10,970 nt of DNA from a virus (Duplodnaviria > Heunggongvirae > Uroviricota > Caudoviricetes), in IMG/VR virus record IMGVR_UViG_2541047932_000014, positions 1 to 10,970 of that record; one strand, 5' to 3'. The notes under the pieces are model-generated. The model saw only the letters and a list, made by a program, of their open reading frames with translations, ran no database searches and was not told the DNA's origin. The position numbers were made by a program, and so were the translations under genes. Each line of letters opens with the position of its first letter. Position 1 is the stretch's first letter. Below, one piece after another: positions 1 through 10,970 of the stretch.

Positions 1-2205
1 ACGGCGCGGGCAAGGGCAGCCGTGTACCGTGCTCAGCAGGCCGTGGCGGCAGCCCGCGGGACGGAGATGCAGATTGCTGCAGAGGCCCGTCTGGCGGCCA
101 CACAGGAACGCCTGAACAGAAATATTGCTGCCAGAAGCGCCGCCCAGAATGCGCTGAACAGTACAACGGCGGTGGGCTCACGTCTGATGACTGGTGCGTT
201 GGGACTGGTTGGTGGCGTACCCGGACTGGTGATGCTGGGGGCAGCAGCATGGTATACGCTGTACCAGAATCAGGAGCAGGCCAGGGAGTCAGCGCGCCAG
301 TATGCACTGACGATAGATGAAATCGCGCATAAAACGCCGTCAATGTCTTTGCCTGAAGCCTCAGATAATGAAGGACGAACACGGGCGGCGCTGGCAGAGC
401 AGAACCGGCTGATTGATGAACAGGCCAGCCGGGTGAAATCCCTGCAGGAAAAAATCGCTGGATATCAGTATGTTCTGGCTAACCCTGGCTGGACAACCGG
501 TGACGGATTCATGATAAACCATCTGACATCGGTGAAGACCGTGACGGAAGGGCTTTCTCAGGCAACAGAGCAGCTTGCCGTTGAGCAGTCCCGTCTGGCA
601 CAGATGCAGGAAAAAGCGCAGTCCATTCAGGATGTGCTTGCCGGGCTGGAAGACCGTCGTGTGGCGTTAATTCGTCAGCAGGCGGCAGAGCAGAATAAGG
701 TGTACCAGTCCATGCTGGTTATGAACGGTCAGCATACGGAATTCAACCGTCTGCTGGGGCTGGGTAATGAACTGCTTCAGCAGCGGCAGGGACTGGTGAA
801 TGTGCCGTTACGGCTGCCACAGGCCACTCTGGATGATAAACAGCAGAGTGCCCTGACAAAAACAGAGCGTGAGCTGGCCCTGTCCAGACTGAAAGGGGAA
901 GAAAAAGAGCGTGTCCGACTGGGGTATGCGGCGGATGACCTCGGTTTTGTGGGTGAACCGTATCAGGAGGCGAGACAACGTTATATCAGTAATGCCCTGG
1001 AAGCCTGGCGCAATAACGAGGCGAATAAACCCAAATCCCGGGGTGGAAAATCAGAGACGGAAAAAGCGGAAGACAGTTTTTCCCGGCTGCTGAAGCAGCA
1101 GAAAGAGCAACTGGCACTTGCGGGGCAGAATACAGAGCTGGCGAAGCTGAAATACCAGACTGCGCAGGGCGAACTGAAAACCCTGACGGAGATGCAGAAG
1201 CAGGAACTGCTGCGCAATGCGGCCCTGATTGACCAGCAAAAAATCCGGGAGCAGTTGCGGTCCCGGGAAGAGACCCTGAAGAATGATAATGTGGCTGCGC
1301 GTGCATCAAATGAAGCGGAACTGCTGGGGTACGGGCAGGGAGAGCGGCTCCGTGAACGCATGCGGGAGTTGCAGCAGATCCGCGACAGTTTCCGCCAGAA
1401 GGATGCGGACCTTCAGTCTCAGTATCAGACCGGGGATATCAGTGAGGATTTTTACAGACAGGCTCTGGCACAGAACGCGCAGTATCTGAGTGAACGTCTG
1501 AAAGAGCAGGAAGCCTTTTATGCCGAATCGGATGTGCAGCGTGCGGACTGGCAGAAAGGGCTGCAGGAGGGATTCAGTAACTGGGTGGATAATGCGTCCG
1601 ATTACGCCTCACAGGCAGCACAGCTGGCGACGGAGGGTATCTCAGGGATGGTGAATAACATCACGGAGATGCTGAACGGAAATAAAGTGGAATGGCGCAG
1701 CTGGGCCTCATCAGTGCTGCAGGAAATATCAAAAGTTCTTATGAATGCCGCGATTGTCAACGGGATCAAGACGGCGGCAAACAGTATGTCCGGAGCGGGA
1801 GGATTTATCGGCAGTATTGGTAGCTGGCTGGGCGGTGCGGTGGCCAATGCAAAAGGCGGGGTGTATACCTCGGCAAACCTGAGTGCGTACAGCAACAGTA
1901 TTGTGGATACGCCCACGTACTTTGCCTTTGCAAAAGGGGCGGGACTGATGGGGGAGGCCGGACCTGAAGCCATTATGCCTCTGACGCGGGCGGCGGATGG
2001 CTCGCTGGGTGTGCGAGCGGTGGGCAGTATGAACGGTAGTGCGGGTCTGGTGTATTCCCCGGTCTACCATATCGCCATTCAGAATGACGGGACTAATGGC
2101 CAGATAGGGCCGGAAGCTGCGGGCACCCTTGTGCAGCTGATTGACCAGCGGGTGCAGGCGGTGATGCTGTCCATGCGACGTGACGGAGGAATGCTGAGTG
2201 GCTGA
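1..2205 (+). CDS. H: Tail tape measure protein (lambda gpH-like), 5'-partial; open from window edge, stop TGA at 2203-2205
   Basis: Frame is open from position 1 through the 727-aa track ORF (22..2205). Long Q/E/R/A-rich, coiled-coil-like sequence followed by a Gly-rich hydrophobic segment (GGFIGSIGSWLGGAVANAKGG), typical of tape measure proteins. Position immediately upstream of M-L-K-I-J as in lambda. Similarity to lambda is recalled, not searched. Confidence 0.85.
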   Translation, partial: TARARAAVYRAQQAVAAARGTEMQIAAEARLAATQERLNRNIAARSAAQNALNSTTAVGSRLMTGALGLVGGVPGLVMLGAAAWYTLYQNQEQARESARQYALTIDEIAHKTPSMSLPEASDNEGRTRAALAEQNRLIDEQASRVKSLQEKIAGYQYVLANPGWTTGDGFMINHLTSVKTVTEGLSQATEQLAVEQSRLAQMQEKAQSIQDVLAGLEDRRVALIRQQAAEQNKVYQSMLVMNGQHTEFNRLLGLGNELLQQRQGLVNVPLRLPQATLDDKQQSALTKTERELALSRLKGEEKERVRLGYAADDLGFVGEPYQEARQRYISNALEAWRNNEANKPKSRGGKSETEKAEDSFSRLLKQQKEQLALAGQNTELAKLKYQTAQGELKTLTEMQKQELLRNAALIDQQKIREQLRSREETLKNDNVAARASNEAELLGYGQGERLRERMRELQQIRDSFRQKDADLQSQYQTGDISEDFYRQALAQNAQYLSERLKEQEAFYAESDVQRADWQKGLQEGFSNWVDNASDYASQAAQLATEGISGMVNNITEMLNGNKVEWRSWASSVLQEISKVLMNAAIVNGIKTAANSMSGAGGFIGSIGSWLGGAVANAKGGVYTSANLSAYSNSIVDTPTYFAFAKGAGLMGEAGPEAIMPLTRAADGSLGVRAVGSMNGSAGLVYSPVYHIAIQNDGTNGQIGPEAAGTLVQLIDQRVQAVMLSMRRDGGMLSG

Positions 2206-2539
2206 GATAAAAACGCTGCATCTGGTCCCGCGTGAAGGGATGCAGGTGAGTGAGAAGCCGTCGGTGGTGAGGGTGCGGTTTGGTGACGGTTATGAACAGC
2301 GCCGCCCCACAGGGCTGAATCCTCAACTGAAGACGTTTCAGGCGGTGTTCCGGGTGACGGATGAGTCAACCCGGCGCTGGCTGGAAGAGTTTTTATCGTG
2401 GCATGGTGGTTACCGTGCCTTTTTGTGGCGACCGCCGAAACATAACCGGACGGTGAGGGTTGTGTGCCGTGAGTGGAGTGTCACGGATAATGCCCGGTAC
2501 AGTGATTTCAGTTGCACGATAGAGCAGGTGGTGAACTGA
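2198..2539 (+). CDS. M: Minor tail protein M (lambda gpM-like), GTG start overlapping the H stop
   Basis: 113-aa ORF with motifs I recognise from lambda gpM (VRFGDGY.QR, FLW.PP, EQVVN C-terminus). 8-nt overlap with the H 3' end and an ATGA-type stop/start overlap with L suggest translational coupling. Confidence 0.88.
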   Translation: MAEIKTLHLVPREGMQVSEKPSVVRVRFGDGYEQRRPTGLNPQLKTFQAVFRVTDESTRRWLEEFLSWHGGYRAFLWRPPKHNRTVRVVCREWSVTDNARYSDFSCTIEQVVN

Positions 2540-3237
2540 TGCAGGATATTCACGAAGAAAGCCTGAACGAGTCGGTTAAATCAGAGCAGTCACCGCGGGT
2601 GGTGCTCTGGGAAATTGACCTGACGGTGCAGGGTGGTGAGCGGTATTTTTTCTGCAATGAGCTGAATGAAAAAGGGGAGGCGGTTACCTGGCAGGGGCGG
2701 CAATATCAGGCATACCCGATTGACGGCAGTGGCTTTGAGATGAACGGGAAGGGCAGCAGTGCCCGCCCGTCGCTGACGGTGTCCAATCTGTTTGGTCTGG
2801 TCACCGGGATGGCGGAGGACCTGCAGAGTCTGGTGGGGGCCACGGTGGTCCGCCGCCGGGTGTATGCCCGTTTTCTGGATGCGGTGAATTTCGTTGCGGG
2901 CAATCCGTCGGCGGACCCGGAGCAGGAGCTGAGTGACCGCTGGGTGGTGGAGCAGATGTCGCAGCTGACAGCCATGACGGCCTCGTTTGTGCTGGCCACA
3001 CCGACCGAGACGGACGGGGCGCTGTTTCCCGGTCGCATCATGCTGGCGAACACCTGTATGTGGGATTACCGGGGAGATGAATGCGGGTATAACGGTCCTG
3101 CGGTGGCGGATGAGTTCGACAACCCCACCACGGATATCCGTAAGGACAGATGCAGCAAGTGCATGCGCGGGTGTGAGATGCGCGGCATGGTGGCTAATTT
3201 TGGCGGTTTCCTTTCCATTAACAAACTTTCGCAGTAA
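2539..3237 (+). CDS. L: Minor tail protein L (lambda gpL-like), tail tip complex
   Basis: The track ORF starts at 2512, but the ATG at 2539 gives a 232-aa protein beginning MQDIHEESLNE, matching the lambda gpL N-terminus (MQDI...) and its length. Cysteine cluster near the C-terminus (NTCMW, DECGY, DRCSKC, RGCEMRG) and the FGGFLSINKLSQ ending are present. The start overlaps the M stop (ATGA). Confidence 0.93.
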   Translation: MQDIHEESLNESVKSEQSPRVVLWEIDLTVQGGERYFFCNELNEKGEAVTWQGRQYQAYPIDGSGFEMNGKGSSARPSLTVSNLFGLVTGMAEDLQSLVGATVVRRRVYARFLDAVNFVAGNPSADPEQELSDRWVVEQMSQLTAMTASFVLATPTETDGALFPGRIMLANTCMWDYRGDECGYNGPAVADEFDNPTTDIRKDRCSKCMRGCEMRGMVANFGGFLSINKLSQ

Positions 3238-3242
3238 ATCCA

Positions 3243-3986
3243 ATGACACAGACAGAATCAGCGATTCTGGCGCATGCCCGGCGGTGTGTGCCTGCGGAGT
3301 CGTGCGGCTTCGTGGTGAGAACGCCGGAGGGGGAGCGGTATATCCCTTGTGTGAATATCTCTGCAGAGCCGGAGGCGTATTTTCGTATTGCACCGGAAGA
3401 CTGGCTGCGGGCAGAGATGCAGGGGGAGATTGTGGCACTGGTCCACAGTCATCCCGGTGGTCTGCCCTGGCTGAGCGAGGCCGACCGGCGGCTGCAGATA
3501 AAAAGTGCACTGTCCTGGTGGCTGGTCTGCCGGGGGGAAATTCATAAATTCCGCTGTGTGCCACATCTGACAGGACGGCGCTTTGAGCACGGGGTGACGG
3601 ACTGTTACACGCTGTTCCGGGATGCCTACCATCTGGCGGGAATTGATATGCCGGATTTTGAGCGTGAGGATGACTGGTGGCGCAACGGTCAGAACCTGTA
3701 CCTGGACAATATGGAGGCGACTGGTTTTTACAGGATTTCCCTGCCTTCCGCACAGCCTGGCGATATCCTGCTGTGCTGCTTTGGCGCATCGGTGGCCAAT
3801 CATGCCGCCATATACTGCGGCAACGGTGAGCTGCTTCACCATCTGCCTGAACAACTGAGTAAACGGGAGAGGTATTCCGAAAAATGGCAACGACGAACGC
3901 ATTCAGCCTGGCGTCACCGCCACTGGCACGCATCTGCCTTCACGGGGATTTACAACGATTTGGCCGCCGCCTCAGCCTGTATGTGA
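3243..3986 (+). CDS. K: Tail tip assembly protein K (lambda gpK-like), JAMM/MPN plus NlpC/P60-like domains
   Basis: JAMM metalloprotease motif H-x-H-x7-S-x2-D is present as HSHPGGLPWLSEAD. The C-terminal half has a Cys/His arrangement compatible with NlpC/P60 (GVTDCYTLF ... NHAAIY ... HH). The 3' end overlaps the I start by 103 nt in another frame, as I recall for lambda K/I. The true start may be downstream of 3243, because lambda K is shorter in my memory. Confidence 0.85.
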   Translation: MTQTESAILAHARRCVPAESCGFVVRTPEGERYIPCVNISAEPEAYFRIAPEDWLRAEMQGEIVALVHSHPGGLPWLSEADRRLQIKSALSWWLVCRGEIHKFRCVPHLTGRRFEHGVTDCYTLFRDAYHLAGIDMPDFEREDDWWRNGQNLYLDNMEATGFYRISLPSAQPGDILLCCFGASVANHAAIYCGNGELLHHLPEQLSKRERYSEKWQRRTHSAWRHRHWHASAFTGIYNDLAAASACM

Positions 3987-4564
3987 ACACGGCAGCGGAA
4001 GCCATTCGCGCCCTGTCGATGCAGATGCCGGGCTTTCGCCGTCAGATGAACGAAGGCTGGTACCAGATACGTATTGCCGGTGATGACACGGCACCGGAGG
4101 CGGTGTATGCCCGTCTTCACGAACAGCTGGGTGAGGGAACGGTCATCCACATTGTGCCGCGACTGGCCGGGGCCAGAAAGGGTGGACTGCAGATTGTGCT
4201 GGGGGCGGCAGCCATCGTGGGGTCGTTCTTCACTGCCGGAGGCTCGATGGCGTTATGGGGTACAGCCCTGGCAGCCGGCGGTTTTTCTGCCACCACGATG
4301 CTGTTTTCACTGGGTGCCAGTATGATTCTGGGTGGTGTGGCCCAGATGCTGGCACCGAAGGCAAAAACACCGGATTACCGCGCAACGGATAACGGTAAAC
4401 AGAACACGTATTTTTCCTCACTGGACAATATGATTGCCCAGGGTAACCCGATGCCGGTGCCTTACGGGGAAATGCTGGTTGGTTCACGACGGATATCCCA
4501 GGACATCAGCACCCGTGATGAAGGCGGGGGCGGAAAGGTCGTGGTTATCGGGCGGCAGGGGTAA
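3884..4564 (+). CDS. I: Tail tip assembly protein I (lambda gpI-like)
   Basis: 226-aa ORF. N-terminus (ARICLHGDLQRFGRR), Gly/Ala-rich hydrophobic core and C-terminal block (TDNGKQNTYFSSLDNM.AQGN) match my memory of lambda gpI. Stop TAA at 4562-4564. Confidence 0.9.
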   Translation: MATTNAFSLASPPLARICLHGDLQRFGRRLSLYVNTAAEAIRALSMQMPGFRRQMNEGWYQIRIAGDDTAPEAVYARLHEQLGEGTVIHIVPRLAGARKGGLQIVLGAAAIVGSFFTAGGSMALWGTALAAGGFSATTMLFSLGASMILGGVAQMLAPKAKTPDYRATDNGKQNTYFSSLDNMIAQGNPMPVPYGEMLVGSRRISQDISTRDEGGGGKVVVIGRQG

Positions 4565-4565
4565 A

Positions 4566-4610
4566 AAGAATAAAAAAATCCCGCAGAGTTGCGGAACTGC
4601 GGGAGCGTTA
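4566..4610 (-). terminator. Rho-independent terminator oriented for minus-strand transcription
   Basis: Hairpin CCCGCAG..CTGCGGG (about 4580-4603; 7-bp GC-rich stem, extendable by TT/AA pairing around a GCGG loop). On the + strand it is preceded by the A-run aaagaataaaaaaat, so on the minus strand the stem is followed by ATTTTTTTATTCTTT. On the + strand it is followed by agcgttacg, which is not U-rich. Confidence 0.6.
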
Positions 4611-4639
4611 CGAAGATTAAGTGTAAGGAATTATTCTTA

Positions 4640-6012
<1,373 letters not shown>

Positions 6013-6030
6013 ATCGGTGGGCATGAAAGA

Positions 6031-6069
6031 AAACCCCGGTATCTGCTGATACCGGGGTTTCTCTTTAGC
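6031..6069. terminator. Perfect 13-bp inverted repeat hairpin, possible bidirectional intrinsic terminator between the IS and J
   Basis: AAACCCCGGTATC tgct GATACCGGGGTTT (6031-6060), followed by CTCTTT on the + strand and preceded by GAAAGA (T-rich on the minus strand). Confidence 0.5.
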
Positions 6070-6163
6070 ATGACAGAAATGTGTTTCATGCTTTTCGGGC
6101 GAAGGATATCCGACTTCTGTACGGAATGGCAAGTGGCGGTTAATTTATTCAGGGGAAGGCTGT

Positions 6164-9100
6164 ATGGGAAAAGGTGGCGGTAAGGCACACACGCCTCGTG
6201 AGGCGAAGGATAATCTCAAATCCACGCAGATGATGAGCGTGATTGATGCGATTGGTGAGGGACCGATAGAAGGTCCGGTGAAGGGACTGCAGAGTATCCT
6301 GGTGAACAAAACCCCGCTGACGGACACGGACGGTAATCCCGTGATACACGGTGTGACGGCGGTCTGGCGCGCCGGGGAGCAGGAGCAGACACCACCGGAA
6401 GGCTTTGAGTCCTCCGGTGCTGAAACCGGACTGGGCGTGGAAGTGACGAAGGCAAAACCGGTGACGCGCACCATTACGTCCGCGAACATTGACCGCCTGC
6501 GGGTTACCTTCGGGGTGCAGTCACTGGTGCAGACCACGTCAAAGGGCGACCGTAATCCTTCCTCTGTCCGGATTCTGATTCAGTTACAGCGTAATGGCCG
6601 CTGGGTGACGGAAAAGGACGTCACCATTAACGGCAAGACCACCTCACAGTTCCTGGCCTCGGTGATTCTGGATAATCTGCCTCCCCGGCCCTTTAACATC
6701 CGGATGGTCAGGGAGACGGCGGACAGCACCACGGACCAGCTGCAGAATAAGACGCTGTGGTCGTCATACACCGAAATCATCGATGTGAAACAGTGCTACC
6801 CGAACACGGCCATTGTGGGGCTGCAGGTGGATGCGGAGCAGTTTGGCGGTCAGCAGATGACGGTGAACTACCATATCCGAGGTCGCATCATCCAGGTGCC
6901 GTCAAACTATGACCCGGAAAAACGCACGTACAGCGGCATCTGGGACGGCAGTCTGAAACCGGCATACAGCAACAACCCGGCCTGGTGCCTGTGGGACATG
7001 CTGACTCACCCGCGCTACGGCATGGGAAAACGTCTGGGGGCGGCGGATGTTGACAAGTGGGCGCTGTATGCCATCGGGCAGTACTGCGACCAGACGGTCC
7101 CGGATGGTTTCGGGGGCACAGAGCCGCGGATGACCTTTAATGCGTACCTGTCACAACAGCGTAAGGCGTGGGACGTTCTCAGTGATTTCTGCTCGGCGAT
7201 GCGCTGTATGCCGGTATGGAACGGCCAGACGCTGACGTTCGTTCAGGACCGCCCGTCGGATGTGGTGTGGCCGTACACCAACTGCGATGTGGTGGTGGAT
7301 GATAACGGCGTGGGGTTTCGCTACAGCTTCAGCGCCCTGAAGGACCGGCACACGGCGGTGGAGGTGAATTACACCGACCCGCAGAACGGCTGGCAGACCT
7401 CCACGGAACTGGTGGAAGACCCGGAAGCCATACTGCGCTACGGGCGCAACCTGCTGAAGATGGATGCGTTCGGTTGCACCAGTCGCGGTCAGGCCCACCG
7501 TGCCGGGCTGTGGGTGATAAAGACCGGACTGCTGGAAACGCAGACGGTGGATTTCACGCTCGGGTCACAGGGGCTGCGTCACACACCCGGTGACATTATT
7601 GAAATCTGTGATAACGACTATGCCGGGACCATGACCGGCGGACGTATCCTGTCCATCGATGCCGCCAGCCGCACCCTGACACTGGACCGTGAGGTGACCC
7701 TGCCGGAGACAGGTGCCGCCACGGTGAACCTGATTAACGGTGGCGGTAAGCCGGTGAGCGTGGCCATCACCGCACACCCCGCGCCGGACCGGATACAGGT
7801 CAGTACCCTGCCGGATGGTGTGGAGACATACGGTGTGTGGGGGCTTTCCCTGCCGTCACTGCGTCGTCGCCTGTTTCGCTGTGTCTGCATCCGGGAAAAC
7901 ACGGACGGCACTTTTGCCATCACGGCAGTGCAGCATGTGCCGGAAAAAGAAGCCATCGTGGATAACGGGGCCAGCTTTGAGCCGCAGTCAGGCACCCTGA
8001 ACAGCGTTATTCCACCGGCAGTGCAGCACCTGACGGTGGAGGTGAGCGCGGCTGACGGTCAGTATCTGGCACAGGCGAAATGGGACACGCCGAGGGTGGT
8101 GAAGGGCGTGCGCTTCAGTCTGCGCCTGACCAGTGGAAGCGGTGAGAACAGCCGCCTGCTGACCACCGCCATCACTGCCGATACGGAGCACCGTTTCAGT
8201 GGCCTGCCGCTCGGGGAATACACCCTGACGGTGCGGGCGATAAACAGCTATGGCCAGCAGGGTGAACCTGCCACCACCACCTTCCGGATTGCCGCACCGG
8301 CAGCACCGTCGCGGATTGAGCTGACGCCGGGCTATTTTCAGATAACCGCCACGCCGCATCTTGCCGTTTATGACCCGACGGTACAGTTTGAGTTCTGGTT
8401 CTCGGAAAAGCGGATTGCGGATATCAGGCAGGTTGAAACCGCAGCCCGCTATCTTGGCTCGGCGCTGTACTGGATAGCTGCCAGTATCAATATCAAACCG
8501 GGCCATGATTATTATTTTTATATCCGCAGTGTGAATACTGTTGGCAAATCGGCATTTGTGGAGGCTGTTGGCCAGCCGAGTGATGATGCATCCGGCTATC
8601 TGGATTTTTTCAAAGGAGAGATAGGGAAAACCCATCTGGCTCAGGAGTTGTGGACGCAGATTGATAACGGTCAGCTTGCGCCTGATCTGGCTGAAATCAG
8701 GACGTCCATTACGAATGTCAGCAATGAAATCACGCAGACCGTCAATAAAAAACTGGAAAATCAGAGCGCGGCAATCCAGCAGATACAGAAAGTTCAGGTT
8801 GATACAAATAATAACCTGAACAGCATGTGGGCCGTGAAACTGCAGCAGATGAAGGACGGACGCCTTTATATTGCGGGTATCGGAGCCGGTATTGAGAATA
8901 CGCCAGCAGGTATGCAGAGTCAGGTGCTTCTGGCTGCTGACCGGATTGCGATGATTAATCCTGCGAATGGCAACACAAAGCCGATGTTTGTTGGTCAGGG
9001 CGATCAGATATTCATGAACGAAGTGTTCCTGAAATACCTGACGGCTCCCACCATTACCAGTGGCGGTAATCCTCCGGCATTTTCCCTGACACCGGACGGG

Positions 9101-9637
9101 CGGCTGACGGCGAAAAATACCGATATCAGCGGTAACGTGAATGCGAACTCCGGGACGCTCAACAACGTCACGATTAACGAAAACTGTCGGGTTCTGGGAA
9201 AACTGTCCGCCAACCAGATTGAAGGCGATCTCGTTAAAACAGTGGGCAAAGCTTTCCCCCGGGACTCCCGTGCACCGGAGCGGTGGCCATCAGGGACCAT
9301 TACCGTCAGGGTTTATGACGATCAGCCGTTTGACCGGCAAATTGTTATTCCGGCGGTGGCATTCAGTGGCGCTAAGCATGAGAGAGAGCATACTGATATT
9401 TACTCCTCATGCCGTCTGATAGTGCGGAAAAACGGTGCTGAAATTTATAACCGTACCGCGCTGGATAATACGCTGATTTACAGTGGTGTTATTGATATGC
9501 CTGCCGGTCACGGTCACATGACGCTGGAGTTTTCGGTGTCAGCATGGCTGGTAAATAACTGGTATCCCACAGCAAGTATCAGCGATTTGCTGGTTGTGGT
9601 GATGAAGAAAGCCACCGCAGGCATCAGTATCAGCTGA
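6164..9637 (+). CDS. J: Tail tip attachment / central tail fiber protein J (host specificity protein, lambda gpJ-like)
   Basis: 1157-aa ORF. The N-terminus [22 protein letters not shown] and many internal blocks ([97 protein letters not shown]) match lambda J as I recall it. Good RBS GGGGAAGG upstream of the ATG. Confidence 0.96.
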
Positions 9638-9656
9638 ATTTTATAACCCATATACG

Positions 9657-9683
9657 GGCGCCAGAAATGGCGCCTTTTTTATT
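9657..9683 (+). terminator. Rho-independent terminator immediately downstream of J
   Basis: GGCGCC agaaat GGCGCC (palindromic 6-bp GC stem) followed by TTTTTTATT, starting 20 nt after the J stop. Confidence 0.7.
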
Positions 9684-9704
9684 GCAGAAAAGCGAGAGGT
9701 AATT

Positions 9705-10304
9705 ATGCGTAAAGTTTGTGCAGCCATTTTGTCCGCAGCCATCTGTCTGTCCGTATCCGGTGCGCCTGCATGGGCGTCTGAACATCAGTCCACACTGAGC
9801 GCGGGGTATCTTCATGCCCGTACGAACGCTCCCGGCAGCGATAATCTGAACGGGATTAACGTGAAATACCGTTATGAGTTTACGGACGCGCTGGGGCTGA
9901 TTACGTCCTTCAGTTATGCCAATGCTGAGGATGAGCAAAAAACGCACTACAGCGATACCCGCTGGCATGAAGATTCCGTGCGTAACCGCTGGTTCAGCGT
10001 GATAGCGGGGCCGTCTGTGCGCGTGAATGAATGGTTCAGCGCGTATGCGATGGCGGGTGTGTCTTACAGCCGTGTGTCGACTTTCTCCGGGGATTATCTC
10101 CGCGTAACTGACAACAAGGGGAAAACGCACGATGTGCTGACCGGAAGTGATGACGGTCGCCACAGCAACACGTCTCTGGCGTGGGGGGCTGGCGTGCAGT
10201 TTAACCCGACCGAATCCGTGACCATTGACCTTGCTTATGAAGGTTCCGGTAGTGGCGACTGGCGAACGGATGCATTTATTGTTGGTATCGGATACCGTTT
10301 CTGA
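9705..10304 (+). CDS. lom: Outer membrane protein Lom (Ail/Lom family 8-strand beta-barrel), lysogenic-conversion-type gene
   Basis: 199-aa ORF with signal peptide MRKVCAAILSAAICLSVSGAPAWA, a terminal aromatic residue (GIGYRF) typical of outer membrane beta-barrels, and alternating amphipathic strands. Position between J and stf as in lambda. RBS GAGAGG. Confidence 0.93.
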   Translation: MRKVCAAILSAAICLSVSGAPAWASEHQSTLSAGYLHARTNAPGSDNLNGINVKYRYEFTDALGLITSFSYANAEDEQKTHYSDTRWHEDSVRNRWFSVIAGPSVRVNEWFSAYAMAGVSYSRVSTFSGDYLRVTDNKGKTHDVLTGSDDGRHSNTSLAWGAGVQFNPTESVTIDLAYEGSGSGDWRTDAFIVGIGYRF

Positions 10305-10410
10305 CAACAGACGCCGATTTATCTTCTGTAAATATTGTTATGATACGCAGGTTCATCCACCTTATGGGGTGAACTGCGTTTGAGGAAACGTAAAGTTACA
10401 CTGTCCTGAA

Positions 10411-10444
10411 GCCCGTGGCGTCACTGCTGCGGGCTTTTTTTATT
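10411..10444 (+). terminator. Rho-independent terminator downstream of lom
   Basis: GC-rich hairpin GCCCGTGGCG tcac TGCTGCGGGC (with G-U pairs) followed by TTTTTTTATT. Only about 12 nt separate it from the stf start codon. Confidence 0.65.
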
Positions 10445-10455
10445 GGTGGAAAAGT

Positions 10456-10970
10456 ATGACAGTAAAAATTTCTGGCGTGCTTAAAGATGGCACAGGAAAA
10501 CCAGTACAGAACTGCACCATTGTGCTGAAGGCCAGACGAACCAGCAGCACGGTGGTGGTGAACACGGTGGCCTCTGAAAATCCGGATGAAGCCGGACGTT
10601 ACAGCATGGATGTTGAGCATGGTCAGTACAGCGTCACCCTGCTGGTTGAAGGTTTTCCGCCTTCACATGCCGGGACCATTACCGTCTATGAAGGTTCCAG
10701 ACCAGGTACGCTGAATGATTTTCTCGGTGCCATGACGGAGGATGATGTCCGACCGGAGGCACTGCGCCGTTTTGAAGTGATGGTGGAAGAGGTGGCGCGT
10801 AACGCGTCCGCAGTGGCACAGAACACGGCAGCCGCGAAGAAGTCAGCCGGCGATGCCAGCACATCAGCCCGTGAGGCGGCAACCCATGCGACTGATGCTG
10901 CAGGCTCAGCACGCGCAGCCAGCACGTCAGCCGGACAGGCCGCTTCGTCGGCTCAGTCAGCGTCTTCCAG
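10456..10970 (+). CDS. stf: Side tail fiber protein Stf (lambda Stf / orf401-like), 3'-partial, continues beyond window
   Basis: ATG at 10456; no stop before the window end. The N-terminus MTVKISGVLKDGTGKPVQNCTIVLKARR...RYSMDVEHGQYSV...GFPPSHAGTITVYE matches the lambda Stf N-terminus as I recall it, followed by the characteristic Ala/Ser/Thr-rich low-complexity region. Confidence 0.9.
   Translation, partial: MTVKISGVLKDGTGKPVQNCTIVLKARRTSSTVVVNTVASENPDEAGRYSMDVEHGQYSVTLLVEGFPPSHAGTITVYEGSRPGTLNDFLGAMTEDDVRPEALRRFEVMVEEVARNASAVAQNTAAAKKSAGDASTSAREAATHATDAAGSARAASTSAGQAASSAQSASS

Follow-up and report, generated by a model that had tools for sequence, protein, structure and literature searches.

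A conserved candidate small RNA unit in the lom-stf spacer of a standard lambdoid J-lom-stf junction

We analysed a stretch of 10,970 nucleotides (nt) from IMG/VR virus record IMGVR_UViG_2541047932_000014 (positions 1 to 10,970; hereafter the window), focusing on the outer-membrane protein gene lom and on the spacer between lom and the side tail fibre gene stf. The open reading frame (ORF) list and Pfam matches identified the window as the tail region of a lambdoid prophage with the plus-strand order H (partial)-M-L-K-I-J-lom-stf (start), and its nearest public relatives are Escherichia coli prophages and lambda-like phages. The lom-stf spacer holds about 88 extra nt that could form a small transcription unit: transcription would begin near 10351 under an extended -10 promoter, and the RNA would carry a hairpin at its 5' end, then a conserved unpaired stretch, and stop at a terminator, T2, shared with lom. 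The predicted product would be an RNA of about 90 nt, from 10351 to about 10441, with the layout of a small RNA (sRNA) of the 3' untranslated region (3'UTR) type that has its own promoter. Our explanation as a whole, namely a standard junction, late read-through transcription of lom and stf, and an extra transcription unit in the spacer, seems to us somewhat better than an even bet.

An extra block is present in the lom-stf spacer

The lom-stf spacer is 151 nt long (10305-10455), compared with 64 nt in lambda, VT1-Sakai and Turner. Alignment with these three placed the extra sequence, an insertion relative to all of them, between the lom stop codon and the stretch preceding T2. The features of the junction are as follows, with identities given between the clades described below and PWM standing for position weight matrix.

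6164-9637, plus strand: J, tail tip attachment protein gene, upstream of T1 (ORF list; Pfam, all GpJ domains including the C-terminal receptor-binding domain)
9656-9683, plus strand: T1, predicted intrinsic terminator (stem 9656-9675, U-run 9675-9680, then AUU)
9694-9699, plus strand: lom Shine-Dalgarno sequence GAGAGG (read from the sequence; invariant in the alignment)
9705-10304, plus strand: lom, Ail/Lom-family outer-membrane beta-barrel protein of 199 amino acids (Pfam Ail_Lom PF06316)
10305-10317, plus strand: variable linker from the lom stop codon to the conserved block (38-54% identity)
10318-10344, plus strand: promoter-like element (TTTATC 10318-10323, extended -10 TG 10336-10337, -10 TATGAT 10339-10344; PWM scan)
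10351-10374, plus strand: SL1, 8-bp hairpin (GUUCAUCC ... GGGUGAAC) at the predicted RNA 5' end (folding)
10375-10407, plus strand: near-invariant stretch, candidate seed region (97-100% identity)
10408-10444, plus strand: T2, predicted intrinsic terminator (stem 10408-10437, U-run 10435-10441, then AUU)
10445-10970, plus strand: stf, side tail fibre gene (Shine-Dalgarno sequence GGTGGA 10445-10450, ATG 10456-10458; the ORF leaves the window end)

The promoter-like element consists of TTTATC and an extended -10, TGtTATGAT (10336-10344). It scored 10.19 bits in the PWM scan and ranked 8th among 21,868 positions on both strands, within the range of the hits upstream of a homologue of the sRNA PasB and of an IS3-family transposase gene in the window. 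The -10 matches the consensus exactly in the P-EibA and SI-NP020 clades (TGtTATAAT or TGgTATAAT), and the TG is kept. Transcription is predicted to start at about 10349-10352. The hairpin that follows, SL1, was retained by RNAalifold, and its variation is one-sided (U-A/U-G, U-G/U-A). The next stretch, 10375-10407, may form a small hairpin (UGCGUUU-GAGG-AAACGUA) followed by the single-stranded AAGUUACACUGUCCUGA; toward its 3' end it shares homology with the sequence that precedes T2 in the short spacer of lambda. The predicted RNA folded at -42.5 kcal/mol (z = -4.6 relative to shuffles).

Two further observations concern this part of the spacer. Positions 10383-10402 (GAGGAAACGTAAAGTTACAC) resemble the lom translation start at 9705-9722 (GAGAGGTAATTATGCGTAAAGTTTGTGC), with the exact 9-mer CGTAAAGTT in the same orientation; this likeness may be accidental or may be what remains of a duplicated lom 5' end. 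The spacer also has a small ORF of 10 codons with its ATG at 10340, which we discarded as a candidate gene because its ATG is lost in the clades with TATAAT.

The block is more conserved than its surroundings

Sequences carrying the block fell into three clades, between which lom is 52-83% identical and the ends of J and stf are more diverged still. Along the spacer, identity between clades was as follows.

13 nt past the lom stop codon: 38-54%
Promoter-like element: 89-93%
6 nt from the -10 to the hairpin: 50-83%
Hairpin SL1: 83-100%
Conserved stretch: 97-100%
T2: 86-94%

Overall, the block is 83-100% identical between clades; it is non-coding, yet it is more conserved than lom and the linker around it. 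The clade differences within it lie in the hairpin loop or the discriminator, or are one-sided wobble changes. In these alignments, this conservation pattern is the strongest argument for the block as a distinct unit.

The block is widely distributed. Among 5,426 complete E. coli genomes, 1,640 carry it, at 1,960 places in all; these amount to about 14% of the lom-stf junctions, and it is at least 99% identical in 1,563 records. IMG/VR contains more than 119 loci with the block but only about 17 distinct sequences, in the three clades. In the same database, one lom allele (at least 91% amino acid identity) was found with the long spacer at 21 loci and with the short spacer at 37. The block also occurs in E. 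albertii, and a scan of genome contigs for distant homologues suitable for covariation analysis yielded only E. albertii beyond E. coli. In enterohaemorrhagic E. coli (EHEC) Sakai, the lom-stf spacer of prophage Sp9 is likewise 151 nt, and the long spacer type has a 100% match in several O157:H7 genomes. The corresponding spacer of prophage PP6 in enteropathogenic E. coli (EPEC) E2348/69 is 100% identical to that of the window. The predicted RNA would span NC_002695.2 1798962-1799052 in Sakai and NC_011601.1 1470683-1470773 in E2348/69.

Two loci showed the block in odd contexts. In L050 (IMG/VR 2609460344_000023, about 7930-8870), a lambda-type major capsid gene E continues in frame into the last few lom codons; this is a prophage remnant with a deletion from E to lom, in which the spacer block and stf are kept downstream. 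In L058 (IMG/VR 2563366803_000005, 6328 onward), an IS200-type element lies directly after the U-run of T2 and replaces the start of stf, and the promoter-hairpin-T2 block is intact. Modular transfer of the block was considered for both loci and rejected, since the first is a deletion and the second an IS200 inserted past T2.

The block is a candidate small RNA gene

DapZ and MicL are 3'UTR-type sRNAs that have their own promoters and share the terminator of the upstream mRNA. The block resembles them in having a predicted promoter shortly past a stop codon, a short structured RNA, a conserved unpaired stretch and the parental terminator, but it differs in not appearing in the Hfq-bound sets of two carrier strains. 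PasB of EPEC is likewise a cassette of promoter and intrinsic terminator in a short tail-operon spacer, with a similar promoter score (Pearl Mizrahi 2021; Zhu 2026 preprint). PasB, however, is encoded on the opposite strand, between I and J; it has no sequence relationship to the block and was validated by Northern blot and by sequencing of ligated interacting RNAs (RIL-seq), whereas the lom-stf block is known from sequence. Lambda 6S RNA and StxS are likewise described as short RNAs made from a promoter that is followed almost immediately by a strong terminator before late genes (PMC7547250). The block, in contrast, lies inside the late operon instead of at its start and shows no sign of a Q-loading site or of conditional read-through. 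A fourth comparison is 24B_1, a microRNA-size RNA of the Shiga toxin phage phi24B located between lom and vb_24B_43, which was also reported directly downstream of a prophage lom (PMC4426718); it differs in its opposite strand, its 428-nt spacer, its 933W-like context and its lack of similarity to the window spacer. Identity of the block with PasB was rejected on position and strand, and identity with 24B_1 on the absence of sequence similarity. HnrS (EcOnc10-12) and AgvB/AsxR were rejected as well, being encoded at other loci.

Published interaction data contain a trace of transcription from the block. One chimeric read from RNase E crosslinking, ligation and sequencing of hybrids (CLASH) in EHEC Sakai corresponds, in the sense strand, to window positions 10364-10381 (PMC5286369, supplementary file 5). 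It joins the 3' part of MicF to the spacer and is annotated as 'ECs1808 5'UTR' (Sakai old coordinates 1798836-1798853; PMC5286369). The read indicates some level of transcription of the region. The MicF sequence GUUUACCCCUAU has near-complementarity to AUGGGGUGAAC in the spacer hairpin, and the predicted pairing is mildly better than that of shuffles (-17.2 vs -12.0 +/- 2.4 kcal/mol). This one chimera is a hint of a host sRNA partner, not proof of one. Searches for the block among known RNAs were negative: Rfam 15 gave no match at threshold for it with the window or the spacer (best relaxed match ncS025, 22.8 bits vs a gathering score of 46), and a search of published papers for the block as a sequence string gave no match. 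The silence of Rfam carries little weight, because the validated PasB also lacks an Rfam match.

Several observations count against a self-standing sRNA. Shuffles of the spacer reached the promoter score in 59 of 2,000 cases (3%); the -35 is poor (TTTATC with a 15-nt spacer to the -10), the commonest variant has TATGAT instead of TATAAT, and the -10 of variant L033 is degenerate. No base pair of SL1 or T2 changes on both sides, and in two variants two upper pairs of SL1 are broken. The sole transcript trace is the one chimeric read, for which a lom 3'UTR or a late transcript would be equally good sources. Both EHEC Sakai and EPEC E2348/69 carry the block, yet it appears neither in the sRNA (EcOnc) list obtained by Hfq crosslinking and analysis of cDNA (CRAC) in the former nor in the RIL-seq tables of sRNAs and interactions for the latter; this double absence counts against an abundant Hfq-bound sRNA under those conditions. 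Neither a transcription start nor Northern evidence for the block was found in published data, and the portions of the EDL933 Cappable-seq tables that were searched gave no match by sequence or by locus tag. A target search covering the translation-initiation regions of lom and stf, the PasB-like RNA and the isrC-like region returned no target of the conserved stretch in the window, none of the pairings being better than those of shuffles.

Taking both sides together, an independent sRNA of about 90 nt encoded by the lom-stf block is plausible but unproven, with a likelihood approaching an even chance. The fuller proposal is more tentative; it holds that the block is a previously unrecognised prophage sRNA, expressed in lysogens from its own extended -10 promoter, ended by the lom terminator and acting in trans on host or prophage RNAs. 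If true, a widespread tail-operon regulator would be added, next to PasB, to the prophage sRNA repertoire of EHEC, EPEC and extraintestinal pathogenic E. coli, a gain of modest importance. About 30% of complete E. coli genomes would carry it, among them the model pathogens EHEC Sakai (Sp9) and EPEC E2348/69 (PP6), and it would exemplify the use of one terminator by both a phage accessory gene and an sRNA.

Two predicted terminators flank lom

The initial annotation placed an intrinsic terminator on each side of lom, and our scan confirmed both on the plus strand. Hairpins followed by a T-run were searched on both strands of the window, with 60 dinucleotide shuffles as the control. T2 (-19.1 kcal/mol) and T1 (-15.7) ranked first and second, and sites at or below -15 kcal/mol numbered 2 in the window against a mean of 0.08 per shuffle. 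Both are predicted, with high confidence, to be real Rho-independent terminators.

T1 begins 19 nt past the J stop codon. Its 8-bp stem, GGGCGCCA / TGGCGCCT, includes 6 G-C pairs, is capped by a GAAA loop (-15.7 kcal/mol by folding) and is directly followed by the tail UUUUUUAUU. It ends 21-24 nt before the lom ATG (9705), and only the Shine-Dalgarno sequence GAGAGG lies inside this gap. Across 12 distinct variants the stem is 95.8% paired, compared with 34-59% for slid registers. At two base pairs both partners have changed, in one from G-C to A-U through a G-U intermediate and in the other from C-G to U-A, and the covariation score was reached by 0 of 500 shuffles; variant L110 has a matching one-base deletion in each arm. 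These changes argue that T1 is under selection as a hairpin. T1 is 86-93% identical between clades, against 53% for the flanking J 3' ends. Where the J allele switches (L072, L047, L088 and the SI-NP020 clade), homology restarts exactly at the T1 hairpin, which suggests that T1 travels with the lom side of the junction; the TTTATAACCC block 5' of T1 is preserved even beside differing J ends.

T2 is the top terminator-like site in the window, with a 12-13-bp stem (-20.5 kcal/mol by folding) and seven U residues. The gap to the stf ATG (10456) is 11-14 nt and contains the Shine-Dalgarno sequence GGTGGA. Within the module one T2 pair varies, on one side only (G-U to A-U). Lambda, VT1-Sakai and Turner each have a counterpart at this position, whose stem differs in sequence and does not align base for base. 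T2 had been described simply as the end of lom; by its position it would end the lom mRNA and, as predicted, the short RNA too, but it is also the 3' end of the conserved block of promoter-like element, hairpin and single-stranded stretch.

A terminator 3' of lom is also found in phi24B and in strain FHI_NMBU_11, despite different neighbouring genes, and the T1-type upstream terminator is specific to the J-lom junction. Just past the phi24B lom gene there is clearly an intrinsic terminator, with ACCCGCTGTGATGGCGGGT and then TTTTTATT (L133 1077-1100; HM208303 about 45576-45599). It falls inside the 428-nt region in which the 24B_1 paper reported no Rho-independent terminator.

The terminator bracket is shared with lambda

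Lambda has the same gene order and strand, a terminator after J (18920-18935 plus U-run) about 25 nt before the lom ATG, and a terminator after lom (19612-19633) about 12 nt before the ATG of orf-401/stf; neither is annotated in the lambda records. Lambda differs in lacking the promoter-like and hairpin block, in its T1 and T2 stem sequences, and in its weaker T1 (-9.7 vs -15.7 kcal/mol). The lambda-type short lom-stf junction was found at 12,236 places in 4,319 of the 5,426 complete E. coli genomes. By these comparisons, the terminator bracket is the standard lambdoid J-lom-stf junction and is not special to this copy. The bracket alters no existing picture, being lambda's own design and consistent with textbook late-gene antitermination.

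Morons, as defined by Juhala and Hendrix (e.g. HK97 gene 15), each carry a promoter and a terminator of their own and a distinct GC content (PMC3594210). Like a moron, lom is a host-benefiting accessory gene inside the tail operon and is followed by its own intrinsic terminator (PMC3594210). In contrast to morons, what lies upstream of lom is a terminator and not a detectable promoter, its GC content is not distinct from that of its neighbours (54-59% vs 46-56% in the flanks, with no step at the boundaries), and its RNA is not above that of its neighbours in EPEC lysogen data. Of the three moron properties, lom thus has the terminator and lacks an own promoter and a distinct GC content.

Transcription of lom and stf

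By their Pfam assignments, J, lom and stf belong to a lambda-type tail operon, and they share one strand. Consensus and PWM scans found no sigma-70-like promoter in either gap, from T1 to the lom ATG or from T2 to the stf ATG, and the consensus scan gave no plus-strand promoter-like site in the whole window. Promoter prediction, proposed in the initial annotation as a check for lom, therefore returned no usable site from T1 to the lom ATG. The accompanying statement that neither gene has room for a promoter was correct for the short stretches past each terminator but not for the whole lom-stf spacer, which has the promoter-like site 5' of T2. A further promoter-like site lies inside J at 9416-9444 on the plus strand (CTGATA-17-TGcTGAAAT, 10.2 bits, equal to the spacer promoter). 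It was rejected as a lom promoter, since it is upstream of T1 and cannot serve lom without read-through.

stf is a structural late gene, and for lambda it is established that such a gene is transcribed from PR' by polymerase that Q has made resistant to terminators. Together with the promoterless gaps, this points to expression of lom and stf most likely by read-through of T1 and T2 in antiterminated late transcription. A phage late antiterminator of the Q type would make polymerase terminator-resistant, so that lom and stf are transcribed within the late operon; in a repressed prophage, T1 and T2 would stop stray transcription from upstream. For lom itself, dependence on late read-through is fairly probable. 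The gene for Q and PR' lie outside the window and antitermination is assumed from lambda, which weighs against this view. Read-through had been proposed on the basis of the present arrangement; the promoterless gaps and the lambda precedent support it, but the arrangement is no peculiarity of this copy.

Expression of Lom from the prophage, which had also been put forward, was not backed by the data that we found. In EPEC E2348/69, J had a DESeq base mean of 15, lom one of 2.0 and stf one of 7.0; per kb these come to about the same level, with the treatment of multi-mapping reads unspecified (PMC8550237, Table S2). These values would place lom at background and suggest that it is not singled out for expression, in a strain with the identical spacer. 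Lambda lom has been listed as expressed in lysogens (PMC1151598; PMC7067206), and it was undetected in one array study of a lambda lysogen, which also noted that little is known of the lom promoter (PMC2147009). Given a J-lom-stf arrangement without a visible lom promoter, treating Lom as a lysogen-expressed virulence factor needs a mapped start site; claims of Lom in lysogens may otherwise reflect leaky or induced late transcription.

Alternative explanations for lom and the spacer block

Lom could instead be made independently of late transcription, as a classical moron product with a lysogenic promoter overlapping or just upstream of T1. In one variant of this idea, transcription starts inside the 3' arm of T1 and the hairpin cannot form in that transcript. 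The only candidate in 9640-9704 is TTTATA (9640-9645), 17 nt and AGAAAT (9663-9668), which would start near 9675, past the 5' arm of T1; we rejected it as weak (PWM 6.2 bits) and not conserved, its -10, which forms the hairpin loop, being absent from lambda and from the variants SI-NP020, L047 and L088. The TTTATAACCC block kept beside different J ends, the lysogen reports for lambda lom and the definition of morons as units with own promoter and terminator (PMC3594210) speak for such a promoter. Against it stand the EPEC data, in which lom RNA equals the J and stf background, the negative lambda array (PMC2147009) and a GC content like that of the neighbours, and we regard it as unlikely.

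The remaining alternatives concern the block. It may be simply the 3'UTR of lom, acting in cis on stability or regulation or serving as the source of a processed sRNA, with a fortuitous promoter match. Homology of the pre-T2 stretch to the lambda lom 3'UTR, the poor -35 and the silence of both Hfq studies on an independent sRNA are in keeping with this, as is the CLASH read, which came from RNase E crosslinking and fits processing of a longer RNA. Against a 3'UTR element speak conservation that begins at the promoter-like site, past a 13-nt variable linker, and not at the stop codon, and an exact TATAAT preceded by TG in two diverged clades; variation is also seen in the 6 nt that separate the -10 from the hairpin (50-83% identity), as expected of an untranscribed discriminator. 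We consider this reading rather doubtful, although less so than a lom promoter at T1. Improbable in our view is a leader or attenuator of stf, in which a constitutive promoter runs into T2 and conditional read-through gives PR'-independent stf-tfa expression, the short RNA being a by-product as with lambda 6S RNA and StxS. No alternative (antiterminator) pairing was found, lambda and most lom-stf junctions (about 86%) have T2 without the block, and stf RNA is at background in EPEC, even though the succession of promoter, short structured leader, strong terminator and late gene reproduces the PR'-tR' order (PMC7547250) and T2 ends just 11-14 nt before the stf ATG. The block might also have no function, its uniformity stemming from the recent spread of one prophage lineage and recombination. 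This would suit the 95% of E. coli copies that are at least 99% identical, the lack of covariation in the block and its restriction to Escherichia (E. coli and E. albertii). The clades nevertheless differ by 17-48% in lom and by more in J and stf, but by only 0-17% in the block, with sharp boundaries and with differences that spare the -10 and the stems and fall in the hairpin loop and discriminator; we give the absence of function as little credit as the stf leader. Compared with these alternatives, the separate transcription unit in the spacer is the reading that we prefer.

Other features of the window

Lom matches PF06316 over its full length (1-199/199, E = 7e-126, 418 bits vs a cutoff of 23), and the N-terminus of Stf matches phage_tail_N PF08400 (1-134/134, E = 5e-72), its RefSeq homologues being named 'prophage tail fiber N-terminal domain-containing protein'.

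The PasB homologue lies at 4572-4700 on the minus strand, directly after gene I and about 5.7 kb upstream of the lom-stf block, and is 85% identical to the PasB region of E2348/69. It has a promoter, TTCACA-16-AATAAT (4697-4670), and a terminator at 4598-4577 that is third-best in the window, and it has no Rfam annotation. Between it and J lies an IS3-family insertion sequence (IS) on the plus strand (about 4700-6010), with OrfA (HTH_Tnp_1) at 4791-5135 and OrfB (rve integrase core) at 5258-6001; the same gap in EPEC PP6 and Sakai Sp9 is only about 190-240 nt. A full-length Rfam 'isrC' match (4823-4945, 150 bits) falls inside the coding region of OrfA, indicating that 'isrC' is here part of the IS element.

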